From the IMG/VR virus record IMGVR_UViG_3300031228_000006, positions 1-61,388 of that record: a DNA stretch of 61,388 bases; one strand, written 5' to 3'. Below are positions 5,553 through 59,619 of the stretch, one piece after another. Origin of the DNA: a virus. Taxonomy: Duplodnaviria; Caudoviricetes. The notes below the pieces were generated by a model that saw nothing but the letters and a program-made list of their open reading frames with translations, was not told the origin of the DNA and ran no database searches. Both the position numbers and the translations under genes were made by a program. The stretch's first letter is position 1; the number at the start of each line of letters is the position of its first letter.

Positions 5553-5616
5553 AGTCACTAGCCTGTCCTCGGTGTGATCCGACAGGATCGACACCCACTA
5601 GAGAAACGAGATCATC

Positions 5617-5958
5617 ATGAGCGACCGATACGACCGCCTGCCGAAGTGGGCGCACGAGGAGATCCTTGACCTCCAGCGTCGCGCCCTGGCCGCCGAGAAC
5701 GACGCCACCCTGGCCCGCCGGGAGGCCAGCGAGGCCAACCCCGACACCCGCACCTTTCTGGACGCCGGGTTCGGCCGCGAGGACATCCCGCTTCCCGAGC
5801 GCCAGAACGTCATCTTCAAGTTGCCCAACGGCAAAGTGACCGTCCGCGAGGAGAGCGGCAGCGTCTACGTGAACACCGTCAGTGACGGCAGGACGATCAC
5901 GGTTGTCATGCCGCACGCCTCCAACGCTCTCACGATCGCTCTGGTGGAGATCCGGTGA
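5617..5958 (+). CDS. hypothetical protein
   Basis: 113 aa ORF. Confidence 0.8.
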   Translation: MSDRYDRLPKWAHEEILDLQRRALAAENDATLARREASEANPDTRTFLDAGFGREDIPLPERQNVIFKLPNGKVTVREESGSVYVNTVSDGRTITVVMPHASNALTIALVEIR

Positions 5959-6566
5959 GGACCATCTTCGGCCGGGTCCACATGACCCGTGAGGAGTGGC
6001 TCAACGCCGCCGCCGCCCGGCTGGCCACCGACTTCGATGACGTCTTCGCCGAGCACGGCAAGCCGGAGATCTTCAGGAACGCCATGTACGCGGCCGGATG
6101 GCCGAGCCGTGGCGGCCAGTCCAAGGTGATCGGGCAGTGCTGGCCGACCAGCGCGTCCGGGGTCGCCCACGTCTTCATCAACCCCCGCCTCGGTGAGGAC
6201 ATCGTCGAGGTCCTCGCCACCCTCGCCCACGAGATGGCGCACGCCGCTGACGACTGTGGGTCAGGCCACAAGGGCCCCTTCACCAAGATGATCCGCAAGA
6301 TGGGCCTGACCGGGAAGCCCACGGCCACCGTGGCCGGTGAGGAGTTCGAGGCTTGGGCCAAGTCGGCCGCCGCCGCGCTGGGGCCCTACCCCCACAAGGC
6401 GATCACCGGCGTCAACCCCAACCTGAAGAAGCAGGTCAGCCGCCAGTTGAAGGTGTACGCCAAGGACTGCGACTCCTGCGACTACGTCGCCCGGACCACC
6501 CGCAAGTGGCTGGACGACCTGGGGGCGCCCAAGTGCCCCCACGGCGTCACCATGACCGAAGCCTGA
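5955..6566 (+). CDS. SprT-like zinc metalloprotease domain protein
   Basis: TLAHEMAH (HExxH), downstream GHKGPF and C-terminal Cys motifs. Confidence 0.75.
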   Translation: MRTIFGRVHMTREEWLNAAAARLATDFDDVFAEHGKPEIFRNAMYAAGWPSRGGQSKVIGQCWPTSASGVAHVFINPRLGEDIVEVLATLAHEMAHAADDCGSGHKGPFTKMIRKMGLTGKPTATVAGEEFEAWAKSAAAALGPYPHKAITGVNPNLKKQVSRQLKVYAKDCDSCDYVARTTRKWLDDLGAPKCPHGVTMTEA

Positions 6567-6600
6567 CCCGTTTACACGACCAGAGAGAGACACCCACATC

Positions 6601-7194
6601 ATGAAGAAGAACGAGATCAAGATCGGCGAGCACTACGCCTACCAGGAGCACTCCTACTCCCGGGTCTACCGGGTCATGGTCGAGGCCGAGGCGCAGATCC
6701 CGAAGGCCAAGTACCCGAAGTACGGTAACCAGAACACCGTCACCGGTTGGCGTCTCCGCATGGCCGACGGCGGCAAGTTCTCCGTCACGGGGTCGAACTG
6801 GACCACCACCAAGGTCGACACCATCGACGTCCCGAGCCGCACCCTGCTGGCCACCTGGGCCGACCACGTCGCCGCTCGCGAGGCCAGCGAGAAGGCCCAG
6901 CGAAAGGCCGCCGAGCACCGCCTGGAGGGACTCACCAAGAAGTTCCGACTCCTGTTGCAGGTCAGCGACGCGATGGACTTCCTCCAGCCCGAGCGCGAGT
7001 ACCGCGAGGTCACCCTGCGCAACGGCCATGCCGAGGCGGCAAGGGCGGCCGGATGGACCGTCACCATCGGGGCGATCCGCACCCGGCTCGACCTCGGTCA
7101 CGGCTACTTCGATGTCTCCCGAGACGAGGTCAGCCTGAAGGATGTCGCCGTCCTCGCGCGGGCGATCGTCGACACCCCCGAGTACACCGAGTGA
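6601..7194 (+). CDS. hypothetical protein
   Basis: 197 aa ORF. Confidence 0.8.
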   Translation: MKKNEIKIGEHYAYQEHSYSRVYRVMVEAEAQIPKAKYPKYGNQNTVTGWRLRMADGGKFSVTGSNWTTTKVDTIDVPSRTLLATWADHVAAREASEKAQRKAAEHRLEGLTKKFRLLLQVSDAMDFLQPEREYREVTLRNGHAEAARAAGWTVTIGAIRTRLDLGHGYFDVSRDEVSLKDVAVLARAIVDTPEYTE

Positions 7195-10907: not shown

Positions 10908-11197
10908 TGAGCCGGTGGAACGGATTCAAGGGCGTCGGCGAGAAGACCGACGGCGGCTGGCTCTACAGGTGCGACGGCATGCCCACCGTGATGGGCTGTG
11001 GCGCGCAGGTCACAATCACCGTGCCCTACGCCCGTGTCGGCAAGAAGTCGACCGGCTGGCTGGTGACGTATGGCCTGGCCGACCCCGAGTCCACGACCAA
11101 CGCCGATAGCAAGGGCAACGACCTGGACGTGGTCCTGGTCTTCTGCCCGAGTTGTGCCAAGGTCGTCGAAGAGCAGGACAAGAGGAGAGGGGGGTGA
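10907..11197 (+). CDS. Zn-ribbon hypothetical protein
   Basis: TAATG coupling; CDG...GC...CPSC. Confidence 0.7.
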   Translation: MSRWNGFKGVGEKTDGGWLYRCDGMPTVMGCGAQVTITVPYARVGKKSTGWLVTYGLADPESTTNADSKGNDLDVVLVFCPSCAKVVEEQDKRRGG

Positions 11198-11342
11198 TCC
11201 GCATGCGACAGGACACGAGTTGGTGACCAAAGGGCGGCCCCCGCCGGTGCTTAACCGACGGGGGCCACGCTCATCACGCCCGATCGCTGACGCTGGATCG
11301 GGCTTCCTCATCCCATCCCCACGAGACACAAGGACAACGACA

Positions 11343-11924
11343 GTGATTCAAGACGGTTACGGCGACATGGTGCCGGACGAGGAGTTCGTCGAGCGCTGGA
11401 TCGGACATGCACACGCCAGCGCTGACCGCGCGGTCCGGCGCAACGACCCCCGCTACGACGACGTGCTCCAGGAAGCCCTGATCGAGATCTGGCGCACCGC
11501 GCAGGCCCACCCCGGCGCCATGGCGTCCTATGTCGCTAAGGCGTCCAAGTATCACGCCATGGACATCGCCATGGGCGCCCGGCCGATGCTGAGCACCGAG
11601 AACACTCCCGGCCCCAAGTACCGCCCCGAGACCGTCGCCGTGGACTGGCAGGCTGACAAGGATGAGTCCGTCATGGACGAGCCCGTCGAGATGTCCGACC
11701 CGCTAGCCGCCGTCGAGTGGGGCTACCACCACGGATTCTTGGCGCAGGTGCTGGACACCCTGAGGCCGGACGACCGGGAGTACGTCGTACGCCGGTTCTG
11801 GCTCGATCAGTCGGTCGACCAGATCTCAGACGAACTCGGGATCCATCGCAACAAACTCGACGCCGCCTGGAAGCGACGGATCAAGCCCCGACTCGCCAAG
11901 GCCCTGGAACTTCTGGCCTCCTAA
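11343..11924 (+). CDS. sigma-70 (ECF-like) region 2/region 4 protein
   Basis: DDVLQEALIEIWR (region 2-like) and LDTLRPDDREYVVRRFWLDQSVDQISDELGI (region 4 HTH-like). Start uncertain (11343 or 11367). Confidence 0.65.
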   Translation: MIQDGYGDMVPDEEFVERWIGHAHASADRAVRRNDPRYDDVLQEALIEIWRTAQAHPGAMASYVAKASKYHAMDIAMGARPMLSTENTPGPKYRPETVAVDWQADKDESVMDEPVEMSDPLAAVEWGYHHGFLAQVLDTLRPDDREYVVRRFWLDQSVDQISDELGIHRNKLDAAWKRRIKPRLAKALELLAS

Positions 11925-12083: not shown

Positions 12084-12184
12084 CTCCTGGAGGGAAGGGG
12101 ATGTGTCCCTGCCAGGATAAGGCATCTCAACTACCCAGACGCCCTGCTGGACGGTTTACCACTAGCCCCAGTAGGTTCTGCATT

Positions 12185-17071: not shown

Positions 17072-17273
17072 ACTGACGCCATTCCAGCGTGGCATGATTC
17101 AGATCCGCGATCGCCACAAGCGGAACATCAAGAGCATCGAGGCTAGCCTCGTTGCCGACAAAGAACAGGTCAGGCAGACCGAGAAGGACCTCCGCGAGGC
17201 CAAGGGTCTCCTGGTCGACACCGAGGAGGCCCTGGCCACCCTCGGAATCACCGAGGAGAACACCGATGGCTAA
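17064..17273 (+). CDS. hypothetical protein
   Basis: GAGGAG RBS; ends EENTDG. Confidence 0.75.
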   Translation: MAELTPFQRGMIQIRDRHKRNIKSIEASLVADKEQVRQTEKDLREAKGLLVDTEEALATLGITEENTDG

Positions 17274-17502
17274 CCCCGAGCGAGACGTCAAGGCCACCCT
17301 GATCACCCTCCGGGCGGACCTGGAGAAGCAGATCATGGCCGCCAGGAGCAGAAGGACGAACTACGCCCAACTGTCCGAGGACGCGGCCACCGAGATCAGC
17401 CTGGTGATCCCCGAACTGGAGAAGGTCCGCGTGCTCTGGGACGCCATGGGCATGAAGTGGGACACCGACGAAGACACCGAAGAGGAGAACACCGATGGCT
17501 GA
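17266..17502 (+). CDS. hypothetical protein
   Basis: Starts inside a boundary repeat; ends EENTDG. Confidence 0.75.
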   Translation: MANPERDVKATLITLRADLEKQIMAARSRRTNYAQLSEDAATEISLVIPELEKVRVLWDAMGMKWDTDEDTEEENTDG

Positions 17503-17830
17503 CCACCTGGACCCCAGGGCCGCCCGTCACTATGCCATGGCCCGCTACGACGATCGCCTCACCGAGGCCATCGGCCTGCTAGACGGGAACGGCAATCACT
17601 ACACCGTCTACCCCTCTCGGGCTGACGCTGTCGCTGCCCTGGTCAAGGCTACCGAGGACGCCCCGGCCGACGCACGAGTCACCGGAGAGTACGACATCAG
17701 CCTCATGACGGATCGGCTGGTAGTCGACTGGATGTCCATCGGCCCCCAACCCAAGCCCCTCAGGGCCCATCCACCCTTCACCCGCTGCACCTTGTCCGAA
17801 CTGAGAGAAGAGGAGAACACCGATGGCTGA
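17495..17830 (+). CDS. hypothetical protein
   Basis: Starts inside a boundary repeat; ends EENTDG. Confidence 0.75.
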   Translation: MADHLDPRAARHYAMARYDDRLTEAIGLLDGNGNHYTVYPSRADAVAALVKATEDAPADARVTGEYDISLMTDRLVVDWMSIGPQPKPLRAHPPFTRCTLSELREEENTDG

Positions 17831-18098
17831 CCGCATCGCTATCGACCTGAGCACCGTCCGCGTACCCGAGTCCGGCAGGATCATCTGGCCGAACGGCAAC
17901 GAGGTCACCGCCCAGGAAATCCAGGACGCCCTGGTCGCCTTCAAGGTCGGCCGCCGCATCGAGCGCGAGGAGTCCGTCAAGGTGGCCGAGAACCAGATGG
18001 ACGCCTTTCTGCCCAGCCCCGGCCTCAACCCCGCCTGGGTCGCTGGGTGGCACGCCGCCATCCGGCACGCCACGCTCGCCCTCAAGCGAGGTTTCTGA
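17823..18098 (+). CDS. hypothetical protein
   Basis: Starts inside a boundary repeat. Confidence 0.75.
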   Translation: MADRIAIDLSTVRVPESGRIIWPNGNEVTAQEIQDALVAFKVGRRIEREESVKVAENQMDAFLPSPGLNPAWVAGWHAAIRHATLALKRGF

Positions 18099-19673: not shown

Positions 19674-19688
19674 TCTCACATCCTGAGA
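19674..19688. promoter_or_regulatory. Palindromic operator variant TCTCA-N5-TGAGA
   Basis: TCTCAcatccTGAGA, followed by a GC hairpin. Confidence 0.55.
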
Positions 19689-19762
19689 CGCCCCGGTCCT
19701 CCTCGGAGGGCCGGGGCGCTAGTGTTCACCCATCGCCTTACCCGATCTCCCCAGGAGGAATC

Positions 19763-23029: not shown

Positions 23030-23030
23030 A

Positions 23031-23045
23031 TCTCACCATGTGGAC
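23031..23045 (+). promoter_or_regulatory. TCTCA-N5-TGGAC operator-like site upstream of the SSB-like gene
   Basis: TCTCAccatgTGGAC. Confidence 0.6.
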
Positions 23046-23164
23046 GCCTCCGACCCCCTGTCGGAGGCGTCTGCTAGTGTCAAACCCGCCGCACCGCGCA
23101 ATAGTGGAGCGGAAGGTCCGGGAGTACCAAAGCGGCTCTCGTGAAAGTGCCATAGGAGGCAACA

Positions 23165-24960: not shown

Positions 24961-25310
24961 TGGGCGGTCGAAAAGATCCCGAGGCTCGGCGCCAGTACGA
25001 CGCCGAATACCGCGCTGCCAATCGCGAGAAGATCGTTGACACTGTCAGGTGGATCAAGATTCTTCAGAAGTTTGGCCTAACCAAAGAAGCGTGGCACGCA
25101 CTGCTGGATTCCCAAGGCGGAAGATGCGCAGTCTGCGGAAGTGATTCACCCGGCGGCAGGGGGCAGTGGCACACAGACCACTGCCACAAAACGAACAAGG
25201 TTCGCGGCCTACTATGCGCCGGGTGCAACCGTGGAATCGGACTCCTAAAAGACGATCCAAACGTCCTTCTAGCCGCCGCCATCTATCTAGAACTGAACTC
25301 ACCTGAGTAG
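24960..25310 (+). CDS. second endonuclease VII family protein (lower GC, possibly homing)
   Basis: KFGLT...QGGRCAVC...TDHCH.T.KVRGLLC..CN.GIG..KDD. Confidence 0.85.
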   Translation: MGGRKDPEARRQYDAEYRAANREKIVDTVRWIKILQKFGLTKEAWHALLDSQGGRCAVCGSDSPGGRGQWHTDHCHKTNKVRGLLCAGCNRGIGLLKDDPNVLLAAAIYLELNSPE

Positions 25311-25314
25311 CGAA

Positions 25315-25428
25315 GCAACTCGACCCCGGACTCATTCGATCCGGGGTCGAGTTGCACCTGAGGTAGCGAATCTCGGCTAGCCCCAGCATACGCGACAGCG
25401 CCCCTGGTCAATGACCAGGGGCGCTGTC
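25315..25428. terminator. Two hairpins at the convergence of the two genome arms
   Basis: GCAACTCGACCCCGGA/TCCGGGGTCGAGTTGC (25315-25355) and GACAGCGCCCCTGGTC/GACCAGGGGCGCTGTC (25394-25428). Confidence 0.75.
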
Positions 25429-25439
25429 TGTACGGTGAG

Positions 25440-25751
25440 TCAGGCAGCGTGGCGGCTGGAGTCGCCGACGGCTTGTACCTTGGCGGTCACGCCGGTCGGG
25501 GTCCAGAGGCCGTAATAGGTGGCCACACCCACGACGAAGGTCACGACGGAGGTCAGGAGGGCCTGGTCCCAGGCGAAGTTGCCGGTGTTGGCGATGAACT
25601 CGGTCAGGAACCCCGAGACAGCGGAGAGACCCAGCAGAAGCAGGGACTTGACGGTCGGGTTGGTCGCACGCTTGGTGACGAGCCCCACCAGGATCGGGAG
25701 GAACACGCCGACGAAGAGCGACGCTACTTGGACGGTAGTGATGGTGGTCAT
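25440..25751 (-). CDS. holin
   Basis: Three TM segments, ATYYGLW.PTGV actinophage holin-like motif, last gene of the late arm. Confidence 0.7.
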   Translation of the reverse strand: MTTITTVQVASLFVGVFLPILVGLVTKRATNPTVKSLLLLGLSAVSGFLTEFIANTGNFAWDQALLTSVVTFVVGVATYYGLWTPTGVTAKVQAVGDSSRHAA

Positions 25752-26601: not shown

Positions 26602-26656
26602 GTGCCCATGGTATCTCACTAGGAGACCAGCCCGTTTACACGACCGAAGAATCGAT

Positions 26657-31254: not shown

Positions 31255-32397
31255 TCAGGTGCTCAGTCGGTCGACCCGCGCCACGGTGTAGGAGGCGATC
31301 TTGCCGCTGGCGGGCTCGGTTGAGATGGCCAGAATGCGGACCCAGATGTCGAGCGTGGTCCACTCGTCGCGGGACTGAAGCAGGATCTCATCACCCACGC
31401 CAGCGGCGCCGAGCGGGGCGTGCTTGTGGTCGTGGACGATGATCTCCTGGATGTCCTCCAGGCGCGAGCGCCACTGGTTCTCGGCCATGGCACGCTTGCG
31501 AGCGTTGTTGGTCGTCTTGATCGAGGCGTCCTCGACGATCGCGATCCGACGAAGCCGCTTCTTCTTGGTGGGCTGCTCGACGACAGCGTGGATCATCGAG
31601 GCACCCTCCCCGGCGCCGAGCACCAGGGAGCCGGAAGCGTAGGTCTCGCCATCTCGATCCACAGTCGGCGACTCGAAGACATTCTCGCCATAGACGAACC
31701 GCAGGTCATTCCGTTTGCGACCGATCTTCGGGTAGCCGAAGTCCAGGTAGTGCTTGATGGTGCCGTCGGCGCCCCAGGCATGGCGCTCGTGGTAGTCGAA
31801 GCCGTACTCATTGGCCAGGTCATCAACCATGCCCATCAGGTCATGGGTGGTGTAGAAGTTGAGTTTCACCGGCCCGGCCTCGAAGGAGACGGGGCCCGAG
31901 ACGGTATCGAACTCAACCTGCTTCAGTTCGGTGCCGATCTCCAGCCCGGTCGTCGTCGAGCCCAATATGAGCCCGAGGTTGCCAGCGCGCTGAGACTGGA
32001 TATGGCTCCAGATCACCCTGACGACGTCGAGCGGGTCGACCTCGACGCCCGCGTACCCGGAACCAGTGTAGGGAAGCCTTCGGCCGTACCCGGTGAATCC
32101 GACACAAGAGAGAGTCCAGTTGGGGCCGTCGAAGCCGGACTGGCGCAGGATGCCCCCGCCACGAATCTCGCCATCGGCCTCGGCGTAGATCGCCGTGGAC
32201 CACTCGTCAAAAAGTGGCTCGCCATCGTCGGCCATCACGCTCGCCATGGCGGGGGCGATAGTGCCGTTTAGGCCGATGTCGCCAGAAAGCACGTCTTCGA
32301 CGTTGACGTTCTCCAGAGGGACGTCGGCGTGCAGGAGGGTCTCGGTCCCATCCCCGTTTACACGGGTAGCGAGGTAGCGCCATCCTCTGCGCTGCAT
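31255..32397 (-). CDS. minor tail protein (Tal/hub-like)
   Basis: Position and size typical of actinophage siphovirus baseplate genes. Confidence 0.7.
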   Translation of the reverse strand: MQRRGWRYLATRVNGDGTETLLHADVPLENVNVEDVLSGDIGLNGTIAPAMASVMADDGEPLFDEWSTAIYAEADGEIRGGGILRQSGFDGPNWTLSCVGFTGYGRRLPYTGSGYAGVEVDPLDVVRVIWSHIQSQRAGNLGLILGSTTTGLEIGTELKQVEFDTVSGPVSFEAGPVKLNFYTTHDLMGMVDDLANEYGFDYHERHAWGADGTIKHYLDFGYPKIGRKRNDLRFVYGENVFESPTVDRDGETYASGSLVLGAGEGASMIHAVVEQPTKKKRLRRIAIVEDASIKTTNNARKRAMAENQWRSRLEDIQEIIVHDHKHAPLGAAGVGDEILLQSRDEWTTLDIWVRILAISTEPASGKIASYTVARVDRLST

Positions 32398-40931: not shown

Positions 40932-41107
40932 GACTTGCTCGCCTTCTCGACGGTGGCGGACAGGTCGATGATGGCCAGGGTCTGGAGGTGGATCGCCTCA
41001 GCCTGCCATCCGGCCGCTGTGCCGGGGTTGGCGTAGCGCGTCTTCTTGATGTTCTCACGCTCCCTGTTGACGGTGTCGCGCAGGGCCTCTCGGTTAGCCT
41101 TACCCAT
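40928..41107 (-). CDS. hypothetical protein
   Basis: GGAGG RBS; begins MGKANREAL. Confidence 0.6.
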   Translation of the reverse strand: MGKANREALRDTVNRERENIKKTRYANPGTAAGWQAEAIHLQTLAIIDLSATVEKASKS

Positions 41108-41291
41108 TGGGATCCTCCAAGTAGGACAGGAACAGTTTCCAGGCCGACTCGGCGTCGTAGCCACGGTTGTACACCGCGAAGAAGGCGGAGCGAAGGCTGG
41201 CATTCAGGGACGCGGTAAGCGTCTGGGCGAGGTCATCCTTCGCCTTGTCGATGGCCTCGTCGATGAGGCCCTGCAATTCGGTGGGTGCCAT
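41100..41291 (-). CDS. hypothetical protein
   Basis: TATGCT 6 nt before ATG; begins MAPTELQ. Confidence 0.6.
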   Translation of the reverse strand: MAPTELQGLIDEAIDKAKDDLAQTLTASLNASLRSAFFAVYNRGYDAESAWKLFLSYLEDPNG

Positions 41292-41350
41292 ATCCCCAGC
41301 ATAGAGAACGGCCGCCCCCGATGTGGGGACGGCCGTCTCATTGGCTGAGA

Positions 41351-42025
41351 TCACGGAGCCTGGTCGATACCCATCTCGTCCAGGAGAGCGAGCCAGCCGG
41401 GCCCGCCGAAGAGCCAGCGCTCGGAGTACCCGAGGGTGCTGTCCTCCTCGCCGGTGAGCGTGACGCCCCAGCCGATGGGGTCGTCGCCGCCGCCGAAGTT
41501 CTGCTCGGCGTAGCCGGTCACCTTGGCGCGGGGGAGGAACCGGCCGATGTAGATCTCGCCGCCGTCGCCCTCGTCCACCGCGAGCGAGAGCGTGCGGTAG
41601 TGACGGCTGGTCGGGCGGGTCGGCTTGGCGATGGAAACCTCGCCGCTGTCGGCGTCGGCGAGGATGCCCGAGAGGTCGGCCCCGGTCGCCATGCCGAGGG
41701 TCAGCAACTTGGTCTCCTGCGCGAGGAACGTCAGGGTCGTGGTGTCCGAGGTGATGTCGGTTCGGGTCGGCGATACCGAGCCCCACGAGGTGACCTCGGA
41801 GTTCGCGACATCACGAGAGAACTGGGCACCGTCCGAGGACAGCCAGCCCGCGTCGTCCCAGTCGGTCGGGAGCGCGGTCAGGTCAATGACCACGGGCGGC
41901 CCGGCGGAATAGGTCGTCAGGTCGACGATCGGCCCGGCGGTGATGGGGGCGACAAAGACGGAGCCGTCGAGCGCCTTCCGGATCAGTTCCTGCTGCTTGT
42001 TCCGCAGGGTGGCGTAGTTGGGCAT
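41351..42025 (-). CDS. major tail protein
   Basis: LIRKAL.GSVFVAP...GWLSSDG...TSWG...PTRTDITS; GGAGG RBS; terminator-like hairpin downstream. Confidence 0.85.
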   Translation of the reverse strand: MPNYATLRNKQQELIRKALDGSVFVAPITAGPIVDLTTYSAGPPVVIDLTALPTDWDDAGWLSSDGAQFSRDVANSEVTSWGSVSPTRTDITSDTTTLTFLAQETKLLTLGMATGADLSGILADADSGEVSIAKPTRPTSRHYRTLSLAVDEGDGGEIYIGRFLPRAKVTGYAEQNFGGGDDPIGWGVTLTGEEDSTLGYSERWLFGGPGWLALLDEMGIDQAP

Positions 42026-42105
42026 CTTGCCTCCATAGGTCAGGGTTGCTTGGGTCTTCAGCGCCCCAAGCCTAGGAGGCACGTCTTCTCAGCCCAGTTT
42101 ACACG
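42026..42105 (-). promoter_or_regulatory. Conserved structured leader, copy 1 (major tail)
   Basis: 42057-42089 is identical to 47281-47313; anti-SD/SD stem plus inner hairpin. Confidence 0.8.
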
Positions 42106-42106
42106 T

Positions 42107-42499
42107 CTAGCCCTTTCGGCGAGACGTGAAGACGTAAGTAGCGCTCAGCCTGGTGACGTTGTCGTCCTCCCAGGGGCCGGGCGCCGGGGCGACGTTCTGG
42201 AACACCCTGTCGATCAGCATGGTGCTGGTCTTGTGATACTTGCCGACCAGCAGGGCACTGATGGCGTTCGCGTGGTCCAGGGTCGTCAGGTAGTTGTCGC
42301 CGAAGACGTCGATGTCTACGGTCCAGGAGCCGTTGGTCTGGGTCTCCGCTCCGCCGCCAGGAACCAGCATCACGCAGACGTAGAGTCCCTGTCCTGCGGT
42401 GTAGTTGAGCGCGCCACCGACCTTCCCGGCCGCAGCCGGGTACTTGGTCTGGATGACCTCCTGCACGGCCTTTTGGATGCTTGTGAATGGCTGAGTCAC
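42107..42499 (-). CDS. tail terminator-like protein
   Basis: Position before the major tail gene; VDIDVFG motif. Confidence 0.7.
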   Translation of the reverse strand: MTQPFTSIQKAVQEVIQTKYPAAAGKVGGALNYTAGQGLYVCVMLVPGGGAETQTNGSWTVDIDVFGDNYLTTLDHANAISALLVGKYHKTSTMLIDRVFQNVAPAPGPWEDDNVTRLSATYVFTSRRKG

Positions 42500-42927
42500 C
42501 TGGGGCCCCCTTTGAAGTCGCCGACTTCTCCGCCAGCATGTGCCAGCGCGCGTACCCGAGGCTGACCTCGGCCACCGAACTCGATCAACGCCGATCCTGC
42601 GACGTTGTTGACGACCTCCACCTTAACGCGAGCATTGCCGCCGACCAGCATGAGACCCGCGTTGCGGCGAACTCGATAGCCCTTGGCGACGCTGGCGTGC
42701 CAGCCGGTCGTCTTCTCGTCGGTACCGCTCTTCTTCTGCTGCTTGGGCGAGAGCGCCCCGGCCCGGACCGCAATGTGCCCAGAGGCCTCGGCGGTGACAT
42801 CGCGCATCTGCTCCGAGCGCATGAACGCACCGAAGGATTTTCTGTTCTCGACGTAGCGAACACGCTCGCCGGGCCTGAACCTGATCCGCGTACGGCGCTC
42901 CGGGAAGACGATCCCGGCGTCGCTCAT
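42496..42927 (-). CDS. neck/tail completion protein
   Basis: Position; ALIEFG motif. Confidence 0.65.
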   Translation of the reverse strand: MSDAGIVFPERRTRIRFRPGERVRYVENRKSFGAFMRSEQMRDVTAEASGHIAVRAGALSPKQQKKSGTDEKTTGWHASVAKGYRVRRNAGLMLVGGNARVKVEVVNNVAGSALIEFGGRGQPRVRALAHAGGEVGDFKGGPR

Positions 42928-43253
42928 GAGCCGACCTTGGTCAGGTAGAAGATGGTCGCCTTGCCGATCCCACGCTTGTTCTCGTAGTGACCGGGCTCAC
43001 CGTCGACGTCCCAGGGCTCGGGGTCGCCGGGCAGAAGGATCTTGTCGTCGGCCTTCACGTCTGAACCGAAGGGGGCGACGACCATCTGGCCCTCGACGAT
43101 CACCCAGCCGCGCTCTTCCTCGAAGGAGGTTCGCGGCACGATCATGCACCCGAGAATCTGGTGGTTCGCCGGAGTACTCGGGGTCGAGTCGAGCGGGTCT
43201 CGTCGCTCCTCGCGACGGACCGTGACCGTCCGCTTGCCGATCTTCTTGGCCAT
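42924..43253 (-). CDS. head-to-tail stopper
   Basis: APFGSDVKADD.I...W.VDGEP motif. Confidence 0.7.
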   Translation of the reverse strand: MAKKIGKRTVTVRREERRDPLDSTPSTPANHQILGCMIVPRTSFEEERGWVIVEGQMVVAPFGSDVKADDKILLPGDPEPWDVDGEPGHYENKRGIGKATIFYLTKVGS

Positions 43254-43792
43254 CAGCCCTGGCCGCCCGGGTCGCCCGGATTGAAGAGGGGGATCTTCCA
43301 CTCGCGCGGGTCGGACGAGGTGGAGAGGTTGATCTGCTGGTCGTCGCCGACGTACAGGGTCTCGACCGGTAGCAGGGACTCGGGGCCAGGCGAGGTCGGG
43401 ATGGTGAAGACCTCACCGGCGCCCTCGGGCGGGTTCGGGTCGCCGTCCGGGTTGTACTTGGTGATCGTCGTACGCTCGGACTTGGTCAGATCCATGAAGA
43501 GCGCGTAGTCGTCCACGTGGCGGTCTCCGCCGATCGGGCCGACGTTACCCTCTGCGACCACCTGGGTCGGGTTCTCGTAGGAGCGTTTACACACCTGGAG
43601 GACGACCATCTCGACGTCGAGCGGAACCCGGTTCTCGCCCGGGTCGAGCGTCCAGTCGACGTTTCCGCCGAGGAAGCGAGCCAGGTTCGACATCTTCTCG
43701 CAGATCTCGATCGCGAGGGGGTCCTCTTCGACCTCGTCCTCGTCGTTCTGCGTCCACGCGGCCAGAGTGCCGAAGGTGATCAGGTTCGCCAT
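43253..43792 (-). CDS. head-to-tail adaptor
   Basis: VP.DVEMVVLQVCKRSYENP...LTKSER motif. Confidence 0.75.
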   Translation of the reverse strand: MANLITFGTLAAWTQNDEDEVEEDPLAIEICEKMSNLARFLGGNVDWTLDPGENRVPLDVEMVVLQVCKRSYENPTQVVAEGNVGPIGGDRHVDDYALFMDLTKSERTTITKYNPDGDPNPPEGAGEVFTIPTSPGPESLLPVETLYVGDDQQINLSTSSDPREWKIPLFNPGDPGGQG

Positions 43793-43804
43793 GTCACTAT
43801 CCTA

Positions 43805-44095
43805 TCAGCGCTGCTTGACGCGGATCTTCAGCGTACGGTCGTCCTGGCGGCCAGCCGAGGTCGTGATGTGGCAGGTCGCCAAGTAGACGACGCCCTCGAC
43901 GCCACCCTGGAGCCACACGACGCACTTGCCGTCGGTGATGGACTCCTCGTGGACCGTGGCCTTCTCCAGGGCGCCTACACCGGTGGGCGAGAGGGTCCAG
44001 GTCGCGTCCTCGATCGTCTCGTCAGCCTCCAGCCAGGTGCTGTAGTCGAAGCCGTATTCAAGGACGGCGTCAGGGTCATGCGGGATCGACGCCAT
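43805..44095 (-). CDS. putative fibre adaptor protein
   Basis: DPDAVLEYGFDYSTWL...VWLQGG..G..Y...C.ITTSAGR.DDRT. Confidence 0.6.
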   Translation of the reverse strand: MASIPHDPDAVLEYGFDYSTWLEADETIEDATWTLSPTGVGALEKATVHEESITDGKCVVWLQGGVEGVVYLATCHITTSAGRQDDRTLKIRVKQR

Positions 44096-45299
44096 GGATG
44101 CGGTCCTCTTTCTCGACTGAAACGATGCGGTTCTCCGCTGCTACGGAGTATACGCGAGACTCACTAGCCACGGTCGTCATTCGGCCGGGGTCGGGGGTGA
44201 CGTCGGACGGCGGCGGCTGGAACCGCAGGAAGCCCCCGGAGACCGAGTCAGACTGGCCGCTGACCGGCAGGGCGAGCGCGATGACGCCCCCGGAGCCGGA
44301 CGTCGCTGCCGAGGTTCCCGAGACGCCCAGGGCGGCCGAGGTTTCGATCGTAGAGGTGCTCGTGCTGGCCGACTCGCCGGACACCGGGATCCGGGCCGCG
44401 ATATCGAGCGAGGAGTCACTCAGGGTGGCCGTCTCGCCCGACATGGGTTTCCGGGCCGCGATTGCCAGCGAGGAGTCGCTGATCGATTCGGAGGTCCCGG
44501 CGATCGGGCGCGTGGCGGCAATCTCCGCCGAGCCGGACGACGAGGACTCGGACGGCCCCGAGGTCACCGTGGCATTCAGAGTGGGGGTCAGCGACGAGGC
44601 CGAGGCGCTCGCGCTCGTGCCGGAGATGGCGTACGCCGTACCGGGCGGGGGCGGGTCTACAGCGTTGATCGCGAAGACCAGTCGCTCGCACGACATGCTC
44701 GTGATCGTCGAGGTGGCCGCCGAGGAGTACGTCGCCCCGACCTGATCTTCGAGGTAGGAAAGCGAGTAGCCGTAGCCGTCGGTCACCGCCAGGGGTACGC
44801 CGGTGTCCACAGCCTCGGCGCCGTTGCTCCAGGTGAACGACGACGGCGTCGCGCCGGTGATGTCCTGGCCGACGACTGCCGCTCGGAAGTCGGCCGCAGC
44901 GGTCAGGCCAGACAGCGAGGGCCCGGCGCCGCCAGAGGCTGAAACATTTCCCTGTGCGGCGGAGCCGATGAAGGCCGATCCGGCGGCGAACTCATAGATG
45001 TCGAAGACGACCGGGTAGTTCGAGCCGTTGTGCGTCGTGGAGAAGGTGTCGCCACCGGCGGCCGTCCGGTACCAGAGGTAGAGACCGGTGTTGTTGACCG
45101 CCGAGCCCCCGGCGGGCAGCGTCCAGCCGCTCGGGGTCGTGCTCGTCACGGCACCCTCGGCCAGGACGACCAGGAGCCGCCCGGCGGTCGGTGTAAACGC
45201 GCTGCCAGCGACAACCGTCCCAGAGGCCGGATTGACCGTGTGCGAGTTCGTGCCGTTGCGCGGGGCGGCGATGGTGACGTGGTTCAGCCACTTGACCAT
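44076..45299 (-). CDS. putative head/neck fibre protein with Ser/Ala-rich ~19-aa repeats
   Basis: Beta-rich N-terminal domain followed by (I/V)SG.S...S.SS..I repeats. Confidence 0.6.
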   Translation of the reverse strand: MVKWLNHVTIAAPRNGTNSHTVNPASGTVVAGSAFTPTAGRLLVVLAEGAVTSTTPSGWTLPAGGSAVNNTGLYLWYRTAAGGDTFSTTHNGSNYPVVFDIYEFAAGSAFIGSAAQGNVSASGGAGPSLSGLTAAADFRAAVVGQDITGATPSSFTWSNGAEAVDTGVPLAVTDGYGYSLSYLEDQVGATYSSAATSTITSMSCERLVFAINAVDPPPPGTAYAISGTSASASASSLTPTLNATVTSGPSESSSSGSAEIAATRPIAGTSESISDSSLAIAARKPMSGETATLSDSSLDIAARIPVSGESASTSTSTIETSAALGVSGTSAATSGSGGVIALALPVSGQSDSVSGGFLRFQPPPSDVTPDPGRMTTVASESRVYSVAAENRIVSVEKEDRIHGVDPA

Positions 45300-45312
45300 G
45301 GCCTATAGCCCG

Positions 45313-45663
45313 TCAGTCGAGCGTGTGGCGAAGGGACCCGGCGGCCACGGTCAGCGTGTCGCCGGTCAGGAGCGAGCGCGGGTTGTCGACGGGCTCCCAG
45401 GTCGACTTCTGAACGCCACCGGTGGAGGCCGAGAAGGTAGCCCAGTGCGTGACGTCGGTGGGGCCGGTGGCAACGGCCGAGGTGAGCGCGCTGGCGTTCT
45501 CCTTGACGGACGGAGTCGCGGCGGAGGCGTTCGTCCAGTCGGTGACCGCCGTACGCGCCACGGCTGACAGGGTGCCCGATGAGTCCGAGGCCCACGCGAT
45601 ATAGTCGGTGTCGACGAACACGTTATCCAGTGCCTGCTGCTGCATCGCCTGAGTCATTGACAT
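45313..45663 (-). CDS. putative virion fibre-associated protein
   Basis: VTHWATFSASTGG...L.GDTLT..AGSL...LD. Confidence 0.6.
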   Translation of the reverse strand: MSMTQAMQQQALDNVFVDTDYIAWASDSSGTLSAVARTAVTDWTNASAATPSVKENASALTSAVATGPTDVTHWATFSASTGGVQKSTWEPVDNPRSLLTGDTLTVAAGSLRHTLD

Positions 45664-45704
45664 GGTGGTGCTCCTGAGTCCTAGTGGTGTGCTCAGGATA
45701 GCAG

Positions 45705-46028
45705 TCAGGAGCCGACCTTCAGGTCAGTTGTCCGGCCGTTCTCAATCCAGACGAACTCGCCGTCAGGACCAACCGGCAGATGCTTCCGGCACCCGCAGCA
45801 GTAGGTGGCTCCGTAGAACCTCGGATCGCGAGCGTACGTCTCGGCGATCGGCAACGCCATGGTGGTCTGGGCGCCACACGGGAGGTGCAGGTAGGACTTC
45901 CTGACCGGACGAATGAAGCCCTGCTTGCGCTCCTCGTCGGAGAGGACCAGGTACGCCTCGGCTTGGTCTACGGGCTCCTCGTCGGCGCCATGCGTCAGGC
46001 GAGGGTCGTTCGGGTCGTCGGTGATCAT
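45705..46028 (-). CDS. Cys-rich hypothetical protein
   Basis: YLVLS.EER..GFIRPVR..Y.H..CG..TTM...AETYARDP.FYG.TYCCGC; TATCCT 6 nt before ATG. Confidence 0.75.
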   Translation of the reverse strand: MITDDPNDPRLTHGADEEPVDQAEAYLVLSDEERKQGFIRPVRKSYLHLPCGAQTTMALPIAETYARDPRFYGATYCCGCRKHLPVGPDGEFVWIENGRTTDLKVGS

Positions 46029-46148
46029 GTCTCCAGGATACCAGCGGAACGCGCGGCCCGACCCGGGGTCATCTTCCACCGTTCCGGACTTCTCGGGCCG
46101 CGCTAGTCCTCGTCAGGACTTCCTGCCCAGGAGGCCCCGCCAGCATAG

Positions 46149-46180
46149 CAAAACCCCCCGACCCGAAGGCCGAGGGGTCT
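46149..46180 (-). terminator. Terminator after the major capsid gene
   Basis: Hairpin followed by TTTTT on the - strand. Confidence 0.6.
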
Positions 46181-46200
46181 CACTATCCGAGATGGGTGAC

Positions 46201-47247
46201 TCAGGCGAAGACTGCGCCACCGTTGGAGAAGGTCGGCGTCAACTTGACGATCCGAACGTTCTTCCGGGTGTTGACGGCCTGGACGGAGATGTCCGTGCCG
46301 TCCTTGTTCTTCATGACGGCGAGGTCCTCGTCGTTGAACTCGCCGGTCTCGACGATGAAGTTGCCGTTGGCGTCCCGCTCGTCCCGGATCTCGTTGACAC
46401 CCATGAAGGTGGAGACGATCGACCGGTCGCGCAGGTAGTTGGCGTCGTAGTCCTGGACCCAGCGCATCGAGATCCCCCGACGGGAGATGCCCGAGTTGCC
46501 GGTGACCGCACCACGGGGCACGTCCGGCGCAGCGTTTCCGAGCACGAAGGACGTGCCGTGGAAGTAGAACGCCTCGTCGGGCTCAAGCCCGTTGTGCTCG
46601 ATCACGAGCGAGTTGGACAGACGGCCGATGACCGCGTCGCGAACGGCCGGGGAGACCGTGTCAGCGAGGTCGGCGTTGGACAGACGCTCGGAGGCACGCC
46701 AGGCGGCTCCGACGTTGTTGCCGACCACGAAGAGGCGACCCGAATACGGGGCGACCTTGTCGGAGTCCATGAGACGCTTCGCCTCGGCGGCCACCAGGTG
46801 GGGGTCGTCGGTGTTGGCGTTGAACGCGAGATCGTGCTTCGCGTTGTTGGCGCGGATGGCCGTGAGCGCCCGGGACTCGATCCGACCCGCGACCGCCTCG
46901 GTCTGCGGGAGCAGAACGTCGGATGCGAACTCGATCTCGTCCAGGGTGAAGTGCTCATCCTCAAGGCCGGTGGCCGAGTAGATGTGGCTGTCCAACTTGA
47001 TCGGGATCCGGCCGCCGGTCTGGTAGATGTCGTCCAGCACGATGGGGCCGGTACGGCCACGGAAGTCGTAGTCGCGGGCGACAGCGATGCTGCCGTCCTT
47101 GACCTTGAGCATGACCGTGTCGCCCTTGGCGCCGACGAAGTTCTGCTTGCCTGCGATGGTGAGGAAGAGCGGCAGGATCAACTGCTGCTCGACCATCGGC
47201 AGGACAAGGCTGGACTGCTTTTCGGCCTTGACCTTCTTTACCGCCAT
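46201..47247 (-). CDS. major capsid protein (P22-coat-like actinophage type)
   Basis: F.GAKGDTV...ARDY.FR...IV.DD...MRWVQDYD...DRSIV; AAGGAGG RBS; follows the scaffold gene. Confidence 0.9.
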   Translation of the reverse strand: MAVKKVKAEKQSSLVLPMVEQQLILPLFLTIAGKQNFVGAKGDTVMLKVKDGSIAVARDYDFRGRTGPIVLDDIYQTGGRIPIKLDSHIYSATGLEDEHFTLDEIEFASDVLLPQTEAVAGRIESRALTAIRANNAKHDLAFNANTDDPHLVAAEAKRLMDSDKVAPYSGRLFVVGNNVGAAWRASERLSNADLADTVSPAVRDAVIGRLSNSLVIEHNGLEPDEAFYFHGTSFVLGNAAPDVPRGAVTGNSGISRRGISMRWVQDYDANYLRDRSIVSTFMGVNEIRDERDANGNFIVETGEFNDEDLAVMKNKDGTDISVQAVNTRKNVRIVKLTPTFSNGGAVFA

Positions 47248-47330
47248 GAGCGGCCTCCTTAGGAACTTGGGTTGCTTGGGTTCAGCGCCCCAAGCCTAGG
47301 AGGCACGTCTTCTTCAGCCAGTTTACACGG
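47248..47330 (-). promoter_or_regulatory. Conserved structured leader, copy 2 (major capsid)
   Basis: Near-identical to 42026-42105. Confidence 0.8.
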
Positions 47331-47338
47331 CTTAAGGT

Positions 47339-47959
47339 CTAGAAGAGGTCGCGGTTCACCAAACCGGCAGCGATCTTCTCGGGATCGAAGTTGGCAGGCT
47401 CCTTGCCGCTCTTCGGGTCGCCGGGGGTCTTGAGGCGCGAAACGGGGCGAACGAAGCCGTTGAACTCGGGCTCGTCCTCATCGTTGTCGTCGTCGTCATC
47501 GTCGCCGGGCTTGCCGTCCTCGCCGAGGCCGAAGTCCTTCTTGACGTCCTCGATGGACTTCTTGATCGCGTCCTCGTCCTCGCCGGTGACGTACTTGGCG
47601 TGGGTGTCGGAGAGGCCAGCCTCGCGGAGCAGGTCTGCGCGCGTCTTCGCCTTCACGGCGTCGTCGCGCTCGGTGGTCATCTTGGCCAGGTCGGTCTCCA
47701 ACTTGGAGATCTTCTTGGTCGCCTCGGCGCCGTTGGCGGACTCGGCCTGGGTCTTCAGGTCCTCGTTCGTCGCCTCCAGCGTGGTCACCTGCTCCTTGGC
47801 GTCGTCGCGAGCGTCCTGGGCCTTGGCCTTGTCGGTGACAAGCCCGTGGATGTACTTCTTCAACTTGGGCTTGTCGATCTCGGCGTCGGTGCCACCCTCG
47901 GTCTCCCACGGGGCGCGGAAGTTGTCGAGGGCCGGGATTGCTTCGATGTGCTTCGGCAT
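47339..47959 (-). CDS. scaffolding protein
   Basis: Acidic coiled coil directly upstream of the capsid gene. Confidence 0.8.
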   Translation of the reverse strand: MPKHIEAIPALDNFRAPWETEGGTDAEIDKPKLKKYIHGLVTDKAKAQDARDDAKEQVTTLEATNEDLKTQAESANGAEATKKISKLETDLAKMTTERDDAVKAKTRADLLREAGLSDTHAKYVTGEDEDAIKKSIEDVKKDFGLGEDGKPGDDDDDDNDEDEPEFNGFVRPVSRLKTPGDPKSGKEPANFDPEKIAAGLVNRDLF

Positions 47960-52014: not shown

Positions 52015-52053
52015 GGGTCCTCCAGGGTGGGTGATGGGGTCCAGCGTATCTCA

Positions 52054-59501: not shown

Positions 59502-59619
59502 GGGGGTGCCTTCTTTCTGACCTAGCAGGTGGGTGATGCGGGCACGTCGTCCCGGGCGGGCGAAACCGATGGTACGCCTGATCGCTGGGCCAGCATACCA
59601 ACTATGGGCGAGTCGGCGT

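Follow-up and report, generated by a model that had tools for sequence, protein, structure and literature searches.

The sequence analysed here is a 61,388-base stretch of DNA from an uncultured actinobacterial phage (hereafter the window), read on both strands. Its minus strand carries two near-identical leaders, at 42023-42108 and 47245-47332, which precede the major tail and major capsid genes, respectively:

41351-42025, minus strand: major tail protein ORF (phrog_476, E 2.4e-57)
42026-42106: intergenic stretch before the tail ORF, the leader of the major tail gene
46201-47247, minus strand: major head protein ORF (phrog_283, E 1.2e-24)
47248-47338: intergenic stretch before the capsid ORF, the leader of the major capsid gene

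The upstream neighbour of the tail leader encodes a tail-terminator-like protein, and that of the capsid leader a scaffold-like protein. A repeat search of the window aligns 42057-42108 with 47281-47332 as a 52-nt pair of 90% identity. Within it, an exact 32-mer occurs twice with up to three mismatches allowed, a result reached in none of 100 dinucleotide shuffles; read by eye, the identity extends to a 33-mer whose first base is the A of AGAAGACG. A covariance model built from 16 related leaders retrieves exactly two copies from the 61,388-base window, and no third. The earlier note's claim of a duplicated leader with an identical 33-mer before these two genes thus stands. Each copy can be divided into the same parts:

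47318-47328, minus strand: capsid box GTGTAAACTGG, hexamer TAAACT at 47325-47320, read as a -10 promoter element
47248-47313, minus strand: predicted capsid 5'UTR, 66 nt, predicted +1 at A 47313, ending directly before the ATG
47295-47304, minus strand: capsid anti-Shine-Dalgarno (anti-SD) strand GCCUCCUAGG, the 5' strand of helix P2 (RNAfold and P2 covariation)
47253-47263, minus strand: capsid SD strand CCUAAGGAGGC, SD core GGAGG at 47258-47254, ATG at 47247-47245
47274-47295, minus strand: capsid inner hairpin P3, GCUUGGG (47295-47289), loop GCGCUGAA, CCCAAGC (47280-47274)
47273-47264, minus strand: capsid A/C-rich bulge, directly after P3
47285-47306, minus strand: predicted capsid alternative local hairpin, GUGCCUC (47306-47300) with GGGGCGC (47291-47285)
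46140-46175, minus strand: terminator-like hairpin after the capsid gene, stem 46169-46155, then GTTTTG (terminator scan)
46147-46140, minus strand: TATGCTGG, 3' of that hairpin, read as the next -10 element
42094-42104, minus strand: tail box GTGTAAACTGG, hexamer TAAACT at 42101-42096
42026-42089, minus strand: predicted tail 5'UTR, 64 nt, predicted +1 at A 42089
42071-42080, minus strand: tail anti-SD strand GCCUCCUAGG (RNAfold and P2 covariation)
42029-42039, minus strand: tail SD strand CCUAUGGAGGC, SD core at 42034-42030, ATG at 42025-42023
42048-42071, minus strand: tail inner hairpin region, GCUUGGG (42071-42065), CCCAAGC (42054-42048)
about 41337-41308 (region 41289-41337), minus strand: hairpin after the tail gene, from sequence
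41303-41296, minus strand: TATGCTGG, 3' of the tail-gene hairpin

The 5' box is most likely a DNA element, a -10 promoter hexamer, rather than part of an RNA. Actinobacterial -10 elements take the form TAnnnT, with transcription starting 6-8 nt downstream. The box fits this description: all 17 related leaders have the hexamer TAnnCT, in which T, A and the final T do not vary, and a purine stands about 7 nt downstream as the putative start (an A at +7 in 12 leaders and at +8 in five). The anti-SD follows 9 nt after the predicted +1, the very base at which the identical 33-mer of the two window copies begins. Compensating indels keep the spacing from box to anti-SD equal in both copies. Further, nine of the 14 TAnnCTGG matches are intergenic, though intergenic DNA makes up 14% of the window, and all nine lie on the minus (gene) strand. 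In each of the related phages L011 and L017, a strong 18-bp terminator with a T-run stops 37 nt short of the box, and a promoter scan called no sigma-70-type promoter between terminator and gene. The suggestion that this 5' part (GTGTAAAC and following bases) belongs to the RNA leader is therefore not supported, since conservation of TAnnCT, the intergenic and strand bias, and the upstream terminators all favour a promoter; the unit would be a promoter plus a 5'UTR, not one RNA leader. Transcripts that always started downstream of the anti-SD would run contrary to what the conserved box predicts. By eye, a TTGAC(N)-17-CA(C/T)ACT pattern is visible upstream of the box in many relatives (the scan did not call that of L004), so the box could also sit inside a longer transcript.

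The motif TATGCTGG occurs four times in the window, always intergenic and on the minus strand, and none of 100 shuffles reached four. Two TAnnnT-N6-ATG arrangements are present in the window. An ATG at 41291, in the frame of the ORF 41100..41786, lies six bases past the hexamer of the TATGCTGG that follows the tail gene; by its sequence, this is a leaderless-type arrangement.

The box also overlaps a dispersed motif. GTGTAAAC is the most over-represented 8-mer of the genome in the window, with 20 copies against 0.69 expected, and is not confined to the two leaders. With the motif so dispersed, the box may serve as a protein-binding site as well as, or in place of, a promoter. The base that follows GTGTAAAC is T in the two leader copies and G (TAAACG) in 17 of the 18 others. 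Dispersed short motifs are familiar in actinophages, and those described in PMC4351075 include the Cluster A stoperators, the start-associated sequences of Cluster K, and the 17-bp repeats of Cluster O. Like them, GTGTAAAC is asymmetric and has many sites within and between genes across the genome; unlike them, it has no orientation rule (nine sense and 11 antisense by rough gene calls, and so no single orientation relative to transcription, as stoperators have), no link to start codons, and no dyad symmetry (PMC4351075).

Downstream of the predicted start, the dominant feature is the pairing of anti-SD with SD. RNAfold pairs GCCUCCUAGG with CCUA(A/U)GGAGGC, with one bulged base, in both window copies, just as the earlier note had it. 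A complement to the anti-SD region is found nowhere else in the window. Folded from the predicted +1, the capsid leader reaches -33.8 kcal/mol (z -2.36) and the tail leader -28.3 kcal/mol (z -2.57). Simple duplex energy does not set the two apart: they rank 2nd and 9th of 78 in this 65% G+C genome.

Helix P2 lies within the minimum free energy structure of 10 of 12 leaders (RNAfold), and is retained in 15 of 16 leaders of the clade. In 14 of these 16 the duplex energy falls between -15 and -20 kcal/mol; the two weak cases are the L003 tail copy (-11.1) and L027 (-9.7 kcal/mol). Cognate anti-SD/SD pairs give -16.9 kcal/mol against -15.0 for non-cognate pairs, a difference not reached in 10,000 permutations. 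Leaders of related uncultured phages keep the helix, with compensatory and G-U changes: on a model alignment of 18 leaders, 88.9% of P2 cells are paired (81.8% when shuffled; slid controls, 46-69%) and 16 cells show double changes (7.1 when shuffled), each value above all 500 shuffles, although these counts are not probabilities, because the alignment was fitted to the structure and the sequences are related. G-U pairs, seven at one position and three at another, fit the mRNA strand only. Across capsid genes of about 70% identity, the helix is both conserved and covarying. Moreover, the tail leaders of L004 and L010, which differ in sequence, have a TAnnnTGG box followed 13-14 nt downstream by GCAGCCUCC, which pairs with AAGGAGGC; these non-homologous leaders appear to have converged on the same pairing. 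Together, retention in the clade, compensatory and G-U changes, and recurrence in two sequence-unrelated leaders support the anti-SD:SD pairing as a conserved RNA feature, not a chance palindrome.

An Rfam 15 scan of the window gave no match at the gathering score, and no match with E up to 1 fell inside the leaders of L001, L002, L004, and L011. The leader thus matches none of the described RNA families in Rfam 15 (riboswitches, ROSE and fourU thermometers, phage leaders). Because related phages keep the same fold, the leader unit is probably a real, conserved and undescribed translation-control element that occludes the SD.

The inner hairpin, described earlier as conserved, does fold in both window copies (GCUUGGG with CCCAAGC, RNAfold), although the tail loop has two extra bases (GA) and the tail minimum free energy structure from +1 shifts the inner pairing slightly. 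As for conservation, P3 is shared only with L003 among the aligned leaders: it is specific to these lineages and does not form a conserved part of the unit. An alternative hairpin that captures the anti-SD is predicted in all 17 leaders examined, at -8.4 to -16.1 kcal/mol; the capsid sub-sequence folds at -10.9 kcal/mol, and its hairpin is mutually exclusive with both P2 and P3. Complementary changes are lineage-specific (GUGCCUC:GGGGCGC in the window, ACCCUC:GGGGGU in L003, GCGCUCC:GGGGCGC in others), with a permutation p of 0.0095 that draws on few informative changes, the outer GCGC:GCGC being invariant in most relatives. This predicted competition suggests a two-state leader. The 14-nt tract that precedes the SD strand is A/C-rich: it has 39% A, 38% C and 15% G, where the strand overall has 17%, 33% and 32%.

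How firmly is the SD closed? Predicted opening costs are 10.5 kcal/mol for the capsid gene and 13.8 for the tail gene; among 36 other window genes with a good SD, the mean is 4.9 and the highest value 8.9. These two SDs are the most occluded among the 38 genes compared, and in SD pairing probability they take the first two of 78 ranks. In 12 relatives the cost from the predicted +1 is 2.4-8.4 kcal/mol, within the range of ordinary window genes, so that strong occlusion belongs to the window and L003 lineage. For the two most highly expressed late genes, one would expect an open SD and not a closed one.

On balance, these results lead us to favour a model in which each copy stands at the head of a self-contained cassette that expresses a single, very abundant virion protein. 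GTG-TAAACT-GG, judged by its conservation, would act as a -10-type promoter element, with transcription starting at the A seven bases downstream of the hexamer, where the copies become identical. In the resulting 5'UTR of 64-66 nt, the CCUCC-containing anti-SD, 9 nt from the 5' end, would pair with the GGAGG SD and its upstream flank. The inner hairpin would lock this pairing in the window phage and L003, and the ribosome-binding site would therefore be closed at equilibrium. Alternatively, the G-rich GGGGCGC after the anti-SD could capture it, giving two exclusive states: a local hairpin with the SD free, and a long-range helix with the SD closed. The leader would thereby gate or throttle translation initiation of capsid and tail-tube mRNA alike. 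Candidates for opening the site are a 30S subunit that binds the unpaired A/C-rich tract just before the SD strand; an RNA-binding protein of phage or host; and cleavage. Given its position at the 5' end, the structure probably also has a secondary effect on mRNA stability.

Stability might instead be the whole purpose. On this less likely account, a compact 5' structure is selected as an mRNA stabiliser or processing module, and SD occlusion is a side effect that ribosomes overcome. The structure might protect against 5'-end-dependent RNases (RNase E or J), or offer a site at which a double-strand RNase cuts these segments out of the operon transcript; capsid and tail mRNAs would then outlive their neighbours. 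The structure does start 7-9 nt from the predicted +1, and a terminator-like hairpin follows each gene, so that the two genes are bounded units. Relatives, too, have the local hairpin within a few bases of the predicted +1, with a moderately open SD (2.4-8.4 kcal/mol). Stabilisation does not need SD pairing, however, yet in every lineage the upstream strand pairs with the SD, the L004 and L010 tail leaders included, and helices of 9-11 bp and 7 bp would be short for a classical RNase III site. That the unit is purely a promoter and operator for a phage regulator, such as a factor acting at the 20 GTGTAAAC sites, with the RNA pairing incidental, is quite unlikely. The over-representation of that 8-mer, the -10-like behaviour of the box, and the palindromic CCTAGG would all suit it. 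Against it, the G-U and compensatory changes in P2 are compatible with one strand only, and in a DNA palindrome, or read from the opposite strand, they would count as mismatches; relatives keep the pairing without CCTAGG; and the dispersed copies end in G where both leader copies end in T. A recent functionless duplication, in which recombination copied the leader between genes and the fold arose by chance in G+C-rich DNA, is very unlikely and already disfavoured by the comparative data. The near identity of the copies and the common occurrence of generic upstream complementarity in the window genome are compatible with it, and cassettes do recombine in L003, since its capsid gene adjoins the tail gene between two leader copies; conservation and covariation of the helix across diverged capsid genes, and the indels that hold the spacing equal, are not what it predicts.

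A further alternative distinguishes transcripts by their origin: read-through or box-initiated transcripts that carry the anti-SD would be silent, and internally initiated transcripts that lack it would be translated. The candidate internal start is the TAGGCT hexamer directly after CCUCC, which conforms to TAnnnT and adjoins the 3' side of the anti-SD in the two window and two L003 copies, the lineages with the strongest occlusion. The T4 genes e, soc, 49, and I-TevI work this way (PMC3014915). This account is nonetheless unlikely here. TAGGCT follows the anti-SD only in the window and L003, the alignment has no TAnnnT between anti-SD and SD in the other 12 leaders, the hexamer overlaps bases already constrained by P2 and P3, and the conserved box sits upstream of the anti-SD.

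The cassette model can also be extended, though the extension is doubtful. The leader would be a true two-state RNA switch of a new type, in which four segments compete (anti-SD, G-rich captor, CCCAAGC as the captor's own partner, and SD) and the winner determines whether capsid and tail-tube mRNAs are translated. The outcome would be decided either by a late factor acting in trans or by a ribosome that docks on the A/C-rich tract, and the -10 box would double as one of the 20 genome-wide GTGTAAAC sites for a phage regulator. If so, one portable cassette would co-ordinate head and tail subunit supply, both transcriptionally and translationally, and could also move genes, as in L003.

Stable 5' hairpins are established mRNA stabilisers in Escherichia coli ompA, the T7 gene 10 leader, and Bacillus subtilis aprE. 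As in those leaders, a stable hairpin is predicted near the 5' end of a very highly expressed mRNA, with 7-9 unpaired bases before the helix in the window leaders, and T7 gene 10 also encodes a major capsid protein. Those hairpins leave the SD free, whereas here the SD is itself a helix strand, and opening it from the predicted +1 would cost 9.4-14.2 kcal/mol.

Structured ribosome-binding sites have precedents in the phage Mu mom leader, which is opened by the Com protein, and in RNA phage MS2, where the coat-gene hairpin relies on ribosome standby and the maturation gene on long-distance pairing with delayed folding. Use of these sites thus depends on a trans-acting protein, standby, or folding kinetics; standby binding would be favoured by the unpaired, A/C-rich stretch that precedes the SD strand. 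Unlike the Mu and MS2 elements, to which its sequence is unrelated, the present one belongs to a phage of an actinobacterial host and is duplicated before two genes, without an identified activator gene.

Another close parallel is T4. In its e, soc, 49, and I-TevI genes, a helix sequesters the SD or start codon on early read-through transcripts (PMC3014915). In both systems a late phage gene has its ribosome-binding site shut by a complementary strand further upstream, here as indicated by RNAfold, covariation, and opening cost, and related phages keep the helix. In T4, the late promoter lies within the 5'-strand region, so late transcripts escape (PMC3014915). Here, the conserved -10-like box lies upstream instead, TAnnCT ending 11-17 nt before CUCC in all 17 leaders, which predicts that the inhibitory strand is present on the gene's own transcript. 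Finally, the T4 examples are lysis enzyme and nuclease genes, whereas the window's two leaders precede genes for the most abundant structural proteins.

Linear-ended and scored by CheckV at 100% completeness, the window is a complete virus record of 61,388 bases with 65% G+C, from a soil sample. It encodes a WhiB-like protein, and its capsid protein, compared with 437 records, matches actinobacterial phages only, all below 60% identity and the best at 35%; together these point to an actinobacterial host. Searches for isolated-phage relatives gave no megablast or blastn match, and an exact 29-mer scan across viral contigs was likewise empty. The left end (1-1122) is a long non-coding stretch, of lower G+C at about 180-620, where it is packed with short repeats of the GTATG/TGTG type; CATTGCAATGTGTATG at 186-201 (within 186-204) resembles the sequence just 5' of both leaders of L003, a contig from a related uncultured phage. 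The virion genes follow one another on the minus strand.

Virion genes and leaders of the window, in gene order
Small and large terminase, minus strand
Endolysin-like gene, minus strand
Portal, minus strand
VG15-family protein, minus strand
47339-47959, minus strand, scaffold, between the VG15-family protein and the major capsid
47245-47332, minus strand, capsid leader
46201-47247, minus strand, major capsid
Connector genes, minus strand, between the major capsid and the tail terminator
42107-42499, minus strand, tail terminator
42023-42108, minus strand, tail leader
41351-42025, minus strand, major tail
Chaperones, then tape measure, minus strand, last in this order

The earlier note had reported an identical 33-mer in the capsid and tail leaders. 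A repeat search bears this out, returning a 52-nt repeat pair of 90% identity; an exact 32-mer common to both leaders occurs twice in the window and not once in 100 shuffles, and by eye the identity spans 33 bases. Folding likewise agrees with the claim that the Shine-Dalgarno sequence (SD) is buried beneath an inner hairpin: in both copies CCUA(A/U)GGAGGC is paired, apart from one bulged base, to the upstream strand (anti-SD) GCCUCCUAGG, and the inner hairpin is GCUUGGG/CCCAAGC. When the window was searched with a covariance model of 16 related leaders, these two leaders alone matched (46.2 and 45.2 bits). In the capsid copy, a GTG just 5' of the anti-SD opens a 15-codon frame ending at a TAA that overlaps the SD; in the tail copy, a 2-nt insertion brings the same GTG in frame with the tail gene (ORF 41351..42082). 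A small upstream ORF was rejected, since L003 and the other relatives lack a GTG at that place. Elsewhere, a 26-nt start region, GAGGAGAACACCG-ATG-GCT..., stands in three plus-strand copies (17250-17275, 17479-17504, and 17807-17832), two of them identical; it is another duplicated ribosome-binding region, probably from paralogous small genes.

Relatives were collected by scanning viral contigs with the capsid protein (14 loci), metagenome and genome contigs with a capsid alignment (53 and 2 loci), and viral contigs with a tail-protein alignment (39 loci). After removal of duplicates, 14 distinct leaders from 13 contigs joined the two window copies; the capsid genes of this set are 67-73% identical to that of the window, and L003 supplies both a capsid and a tail leader. 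All 16 share one layout: a G(T/G)GTAnnCT box, 11-17 nt, CUCC, 25-45 nt, GGAGG, 4-8 nt, and the start codon. A weaker covariance match (26 bits) precedes the scaffold gene of the related contig L012, and the leaders differ in front of more distant capsid genes (below about 63% identity). Among the 39 tail-gene loci only three, on the contigs of L003, L004, and L010, have an anti-SD leader; the remainder have short spacers or terminator-like hairpins. Where both genes are visible (the window and these three contigs), an anti-SD lies upstream of both SDs in four cases out of four. The L004 and L010 tail leaders are independent support, the same design from unlike sequence: TAC(G/C)ATGG, then, 13-14 nt later, GCAGCCUCC, which pairs with AAGGAGGC.

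The loci of the relatives hold further features. Gene order in L003:1-7550 is rearranged, with the capsid gene (4878-5912) between the tail terminator and the major tail gene (6109-6777) and a leader copy on each side of it; the duplicated cassette may have served as a recombination substrate, or the arrangement may be an assembly artefact. Directly 3' of the capsid gene, relatives carry tRNA genes (L004:9185-9537, L006:3093-3240, L017:2887-3038, L011:3444-3524) for Asn-GTT and Lys-CTT, and also Trp or Ser; unlike them, the window has no tRNA there. Short matches to the Rfam tmRNA model lie at L004:9585-9664 and L011:3413-3494, and the capsid N-terminus is Lys-rich. Eleven distant relatives (L013, L015, L026, L029, L031, L033, L034, L037, L038, L048, and L052; capsids 36-63% identical) have another conserved hairpin 40-90 nt upstream of the capsid gene, of the form CCGC-N-CG-stem ... 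CCACGG(G/A)G loop ... stem-GCGG, whose stem changes look compensatory by eye. In spacers of its early region the window has an inverted-repeat-like motif, (G)TCTCAC-N5-6-(T)GGAC, which in L004, L006-L009, L011, L019, L023, L027, and L040 stands 60-80 nt upstream of the capsid leader; it is a candidate operator or early promoter element.

Early-region copies of (G)TCTCAC-N5-6-(T)GGAC in the window
about 5545-5565, plus strand
about 12095-12115, plus strand
about 19680-19700, plus strand
about 23030-23050, plus strand

The covariation search that had been proposed upstream of capsid and tail genes bears on the anti-SD:SD helix (P2). Its duplex lies between -15 and -20 kcal/mol in 14 of 16 leaders, the weaker ones being the L003 tail copy (-11.1) and L027 (-9.7). 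Cognate strands pair at -16.9 versus -15.0 kcal/mol for non-cognate ones, a difference reached in none of 10,000 permutations. In a model-based alignment of 18 leaders, standard pairs fill 88.9% of P2 cells versus 81.8% after shuffling, and cells changed on both sides number 16 versus 7.1 expected (0/500 each); because the alignment is fitted to the structure, the sequences are related, and shuffles ignore relatedness, these counts support the helix and are not probabilities. Sliding the partner by 1-3 columns lowers the pairing to 46-69%. The variable pairs are C-G/U-A, G-U/A-U/G-C, and G-C/A-U; since G-U pairs are mismatches on the opposite strand, the constraint acts on the sense RNA. Judged from these comparisons, the SD-closing helix is under selection. 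A helix flanking the GTGTA box (P1) was rejected as a general feature (cognate -4.64 versus non-cognate -4.85 kcal/mol, p 0.68); its pairing had appeared convincing in L004, L006, L009, and L021.

How firmly is the SD closed? Plain duplex energy is not discriminating in a genome of 65% G+C, the two leaders ranking an unexceptional 2nd and 9th of 78 genes, and was therefore replaced by the cost of opening the SD. Unpairing GGAGG costs, over the ensemble, 10.5 kcal/mol in the capsid gene and 13.8 in the tail gene (9.4 and 14.2 from the predicted +1); the 36 other window genes with a good SD average 4.9 and do not exceed 8.9. By SD pairing probability, the two genes rank first and second of 78, nine of which reach at least 0.92. 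Predicted opening costs for all collected capsid leaders are generally high, at 3.3 to 12.7; from the predicted +1, 12 relatives give only 2.4-8.4 kcal/mol. In these folding models, very tight closure is a trait of the window and L003, the only two with the inner hairpin GCUUGGG/CCCAAGC.

A second fold competes with the first. Every one of 17 leaders allows the anti-SD, together with its 5' flank, to pair instead with a G-rich stretch just 3' of it, with predicted energies of -8.4 to -16.1 kcal/mol (permutation p = 0.0095). The sequences vary by lineage and complementarity is kept.

Arms of the competing hairpin
Window: 5' GUGCCUC, 3' GGGGCGC
L003: 5' ACCCUC, 3' GGGGGU
Most relatives: 5' GCGCUCC, 3' GGGGCGC
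L027: a CCG...CGG variant

In L011 this hairpin is the minimum-free-energy winner, and in the L004 and L010 tail leaders a local hairpin, GCAGCC/GGCUGC, takes the same role. Because it and the SD helix are mutually exclusive, the modeled leader resembles an element with two states. In the window the balance lies about 10 kcal/mol towards the closed one, so that kinetics or a factor would be required to open it. The 14 nt 5' of the SD strand are 39% A, 38% C, 15% G, and 8% U (238 nt over the leaders), compared with 17% A, 33% C, 32% G, and 18% U for the strand; such an A/C-rich, G-poor tract would fit an unpaired docking tract. A search for a trans-acting antisense (16-mer, up to 3 mismatches) found no second window site complementary to the anti-SD region, the sole matches being the leaders' own opposite strands.

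The 5' box, which the earlier note had counted as part of the RNA leader, is probably a promoter element instead; the pairing downstream of it is what is constrained as RNA. All 17 leaders have the hexamer TAnnCT; it is followed by an A, at +7 in 12 of them and at +8 in the other 5. In the window, compensating indels make the two copies unlike over the six bases that follow the hexamer, and identity resumes exactly at the A at +7 (47313, capsid; 42089, tail), the predicted start site. In L011 and L017, 37 nt separate the box from the end of an upstream 18-bp terminator with a T-run, and no sigma-70-type promoter was called between terminator and gene. Nine of 14 TAnnCTGG matches in the window are intergenic (versus 14% of the window), all nine on the minus, late-gene strand. 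TATGCTGG has four copies, all intergenic and on the minus strand, a number reached in none of 100 shuffles: one heads the rightmost operon, and three lie directly 3' of terminal hairpins, those of the capsid gene (at about 46150), the tail gene (about 41308), and the last late gene. These spacer motifs probably represent a phage late -10 promoter class; two of the sites share the upstream motif CTAGTGAGA.

TATGCTGG/TAnnCTGG spacer sites in the window
25383-25390, minus strand
41296-41303, minus strand
46140-46147, minus strand
59590-59597, minus strand
52041-52048, minus strand, further site
26606-26613, minus strand, further site
32063-32070, minus strand, further site
12112-12119, minus strand, further site

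At two sites the hexamer stands six bases 5' of an ATG (41303 to the ATG at 41291; 26613 to a membrane-protein ATG), which by analogy is the arrangement of leaderless actinobacterial mRNAs. Box, terminator, and hairpins together suggest that the capsid and tail genes are each a bounded unit: promoter, 5'UTR, gene, and hairpin. By eye, about nine relatives have TTGAC(N)-17-CA(C/T)ACT upstream of the box; a consensus scan of L004 did not call it. As to a phage sigma factor, ORF 11070-11924 gives only a sub-threshold Sigma70_r4_2 match (21.0 bits versus a cut-off of 25.7) and no PHROG match. An ECF-type or sigma-B-type box was rejected on spacings that, judged by eye, do not fit. Beyond the last late gene, at 25290-25440 (minus strand), a hairpin and then TATGCTGG are separated by about 40 nt from a second long hairpin, which has the repeat GCTAC(C)TCAGGTG on its flanks; the region may act as a bidirectional terminator or encode a short non-coding transcript.

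No 8-mer in the genome is more over-represented than GTGTAAAC, with 20 copies versus 0.69 expected and a consensus context of about GGTC-GTGTAAAC-GGG. Outside the leaders, 17 of 18 copies are followed by G. Copies lie in genes, gene junctions, and spacers with no orientation rule, and one at a junction provides a TAA stop (32403-32401). Across about 447 kb of loci, relatives hold 24 distinct copies, and in 21 of these G is again the next base. One guess is a binding site for a regulator.

Sites of GTGTAAAC in the window
Plus strand: 24306, 39772, 45191, 48039, 50361, 54002
Minus strand: 58393, 47328, 43592, 42104, 35596, 32406, 32363
Minus strand, continued: 26641, 19209, 18959, 11991, 8943, 6577, 4376

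The repeat, conserved pairing, and predicted energetics demonstrated for the leader are best read as a cis-acting translational gate: the gene's own transcript would carry the anti-SD that closes the ribosome-binding site, and the local hairpin would offer the open state. We infer, besides the start site, that translation is affected and that the leader switches. Counted from the predicted +1, the capsid 5'UTR has 66 nt and a folding energy of -33.8 kcal/mol (z -2.36), matched by 6 of 200 shuffles; for the tail 5'UTR the values are 64 nt and -28.3 kcal/mol (z -2.57), with 2 of 200. The main rival is a 5' stabiliser or processing structure, which we consider unlikely; if the leader only stabilises mRNA, its form is unusual and the solution ordinary. 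Still less probable is an escape of the T4 type, in which transcription from an internal TAGGCT start would bypass the anti-SD; that start is possible only in the lineage of the window and L003.

Capsid and tail-tube subunits are needed in hundreds and neighboring products in small numbers, a disparity usually credited to the strength of promoter and SD and to mRNA stability. In this clade of uncultured actinobacterial phages, a conserved SD-closing leader stands behind its own predicted promoter on exactly the capsid and tail genes, and some members achieve this with a different sequence. Should the fold indeed gate translation, phages of high-G+C hosts would have in it a compact, portable unit that controls the stoichiometry or timing of structural proteins; Rfam-type libraries would gain a new RNA motif, and the leader would be a candidate part for controlling expression in actinobacteria.

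SD-sequestering leaders are a known kind; Rfam has no family match in the window or in the leaders of L001, L002, L004, and L011. A limited literature search, which is no proof of absence, found no such leader described before actinophage capsid or tail genes. The comparison system is the T4 cases of SD-sequestering leaders, as described in PMC3014915. From those cases the window leader differs in its promoter position, its target genes, its duplication, and its competing hairpin.
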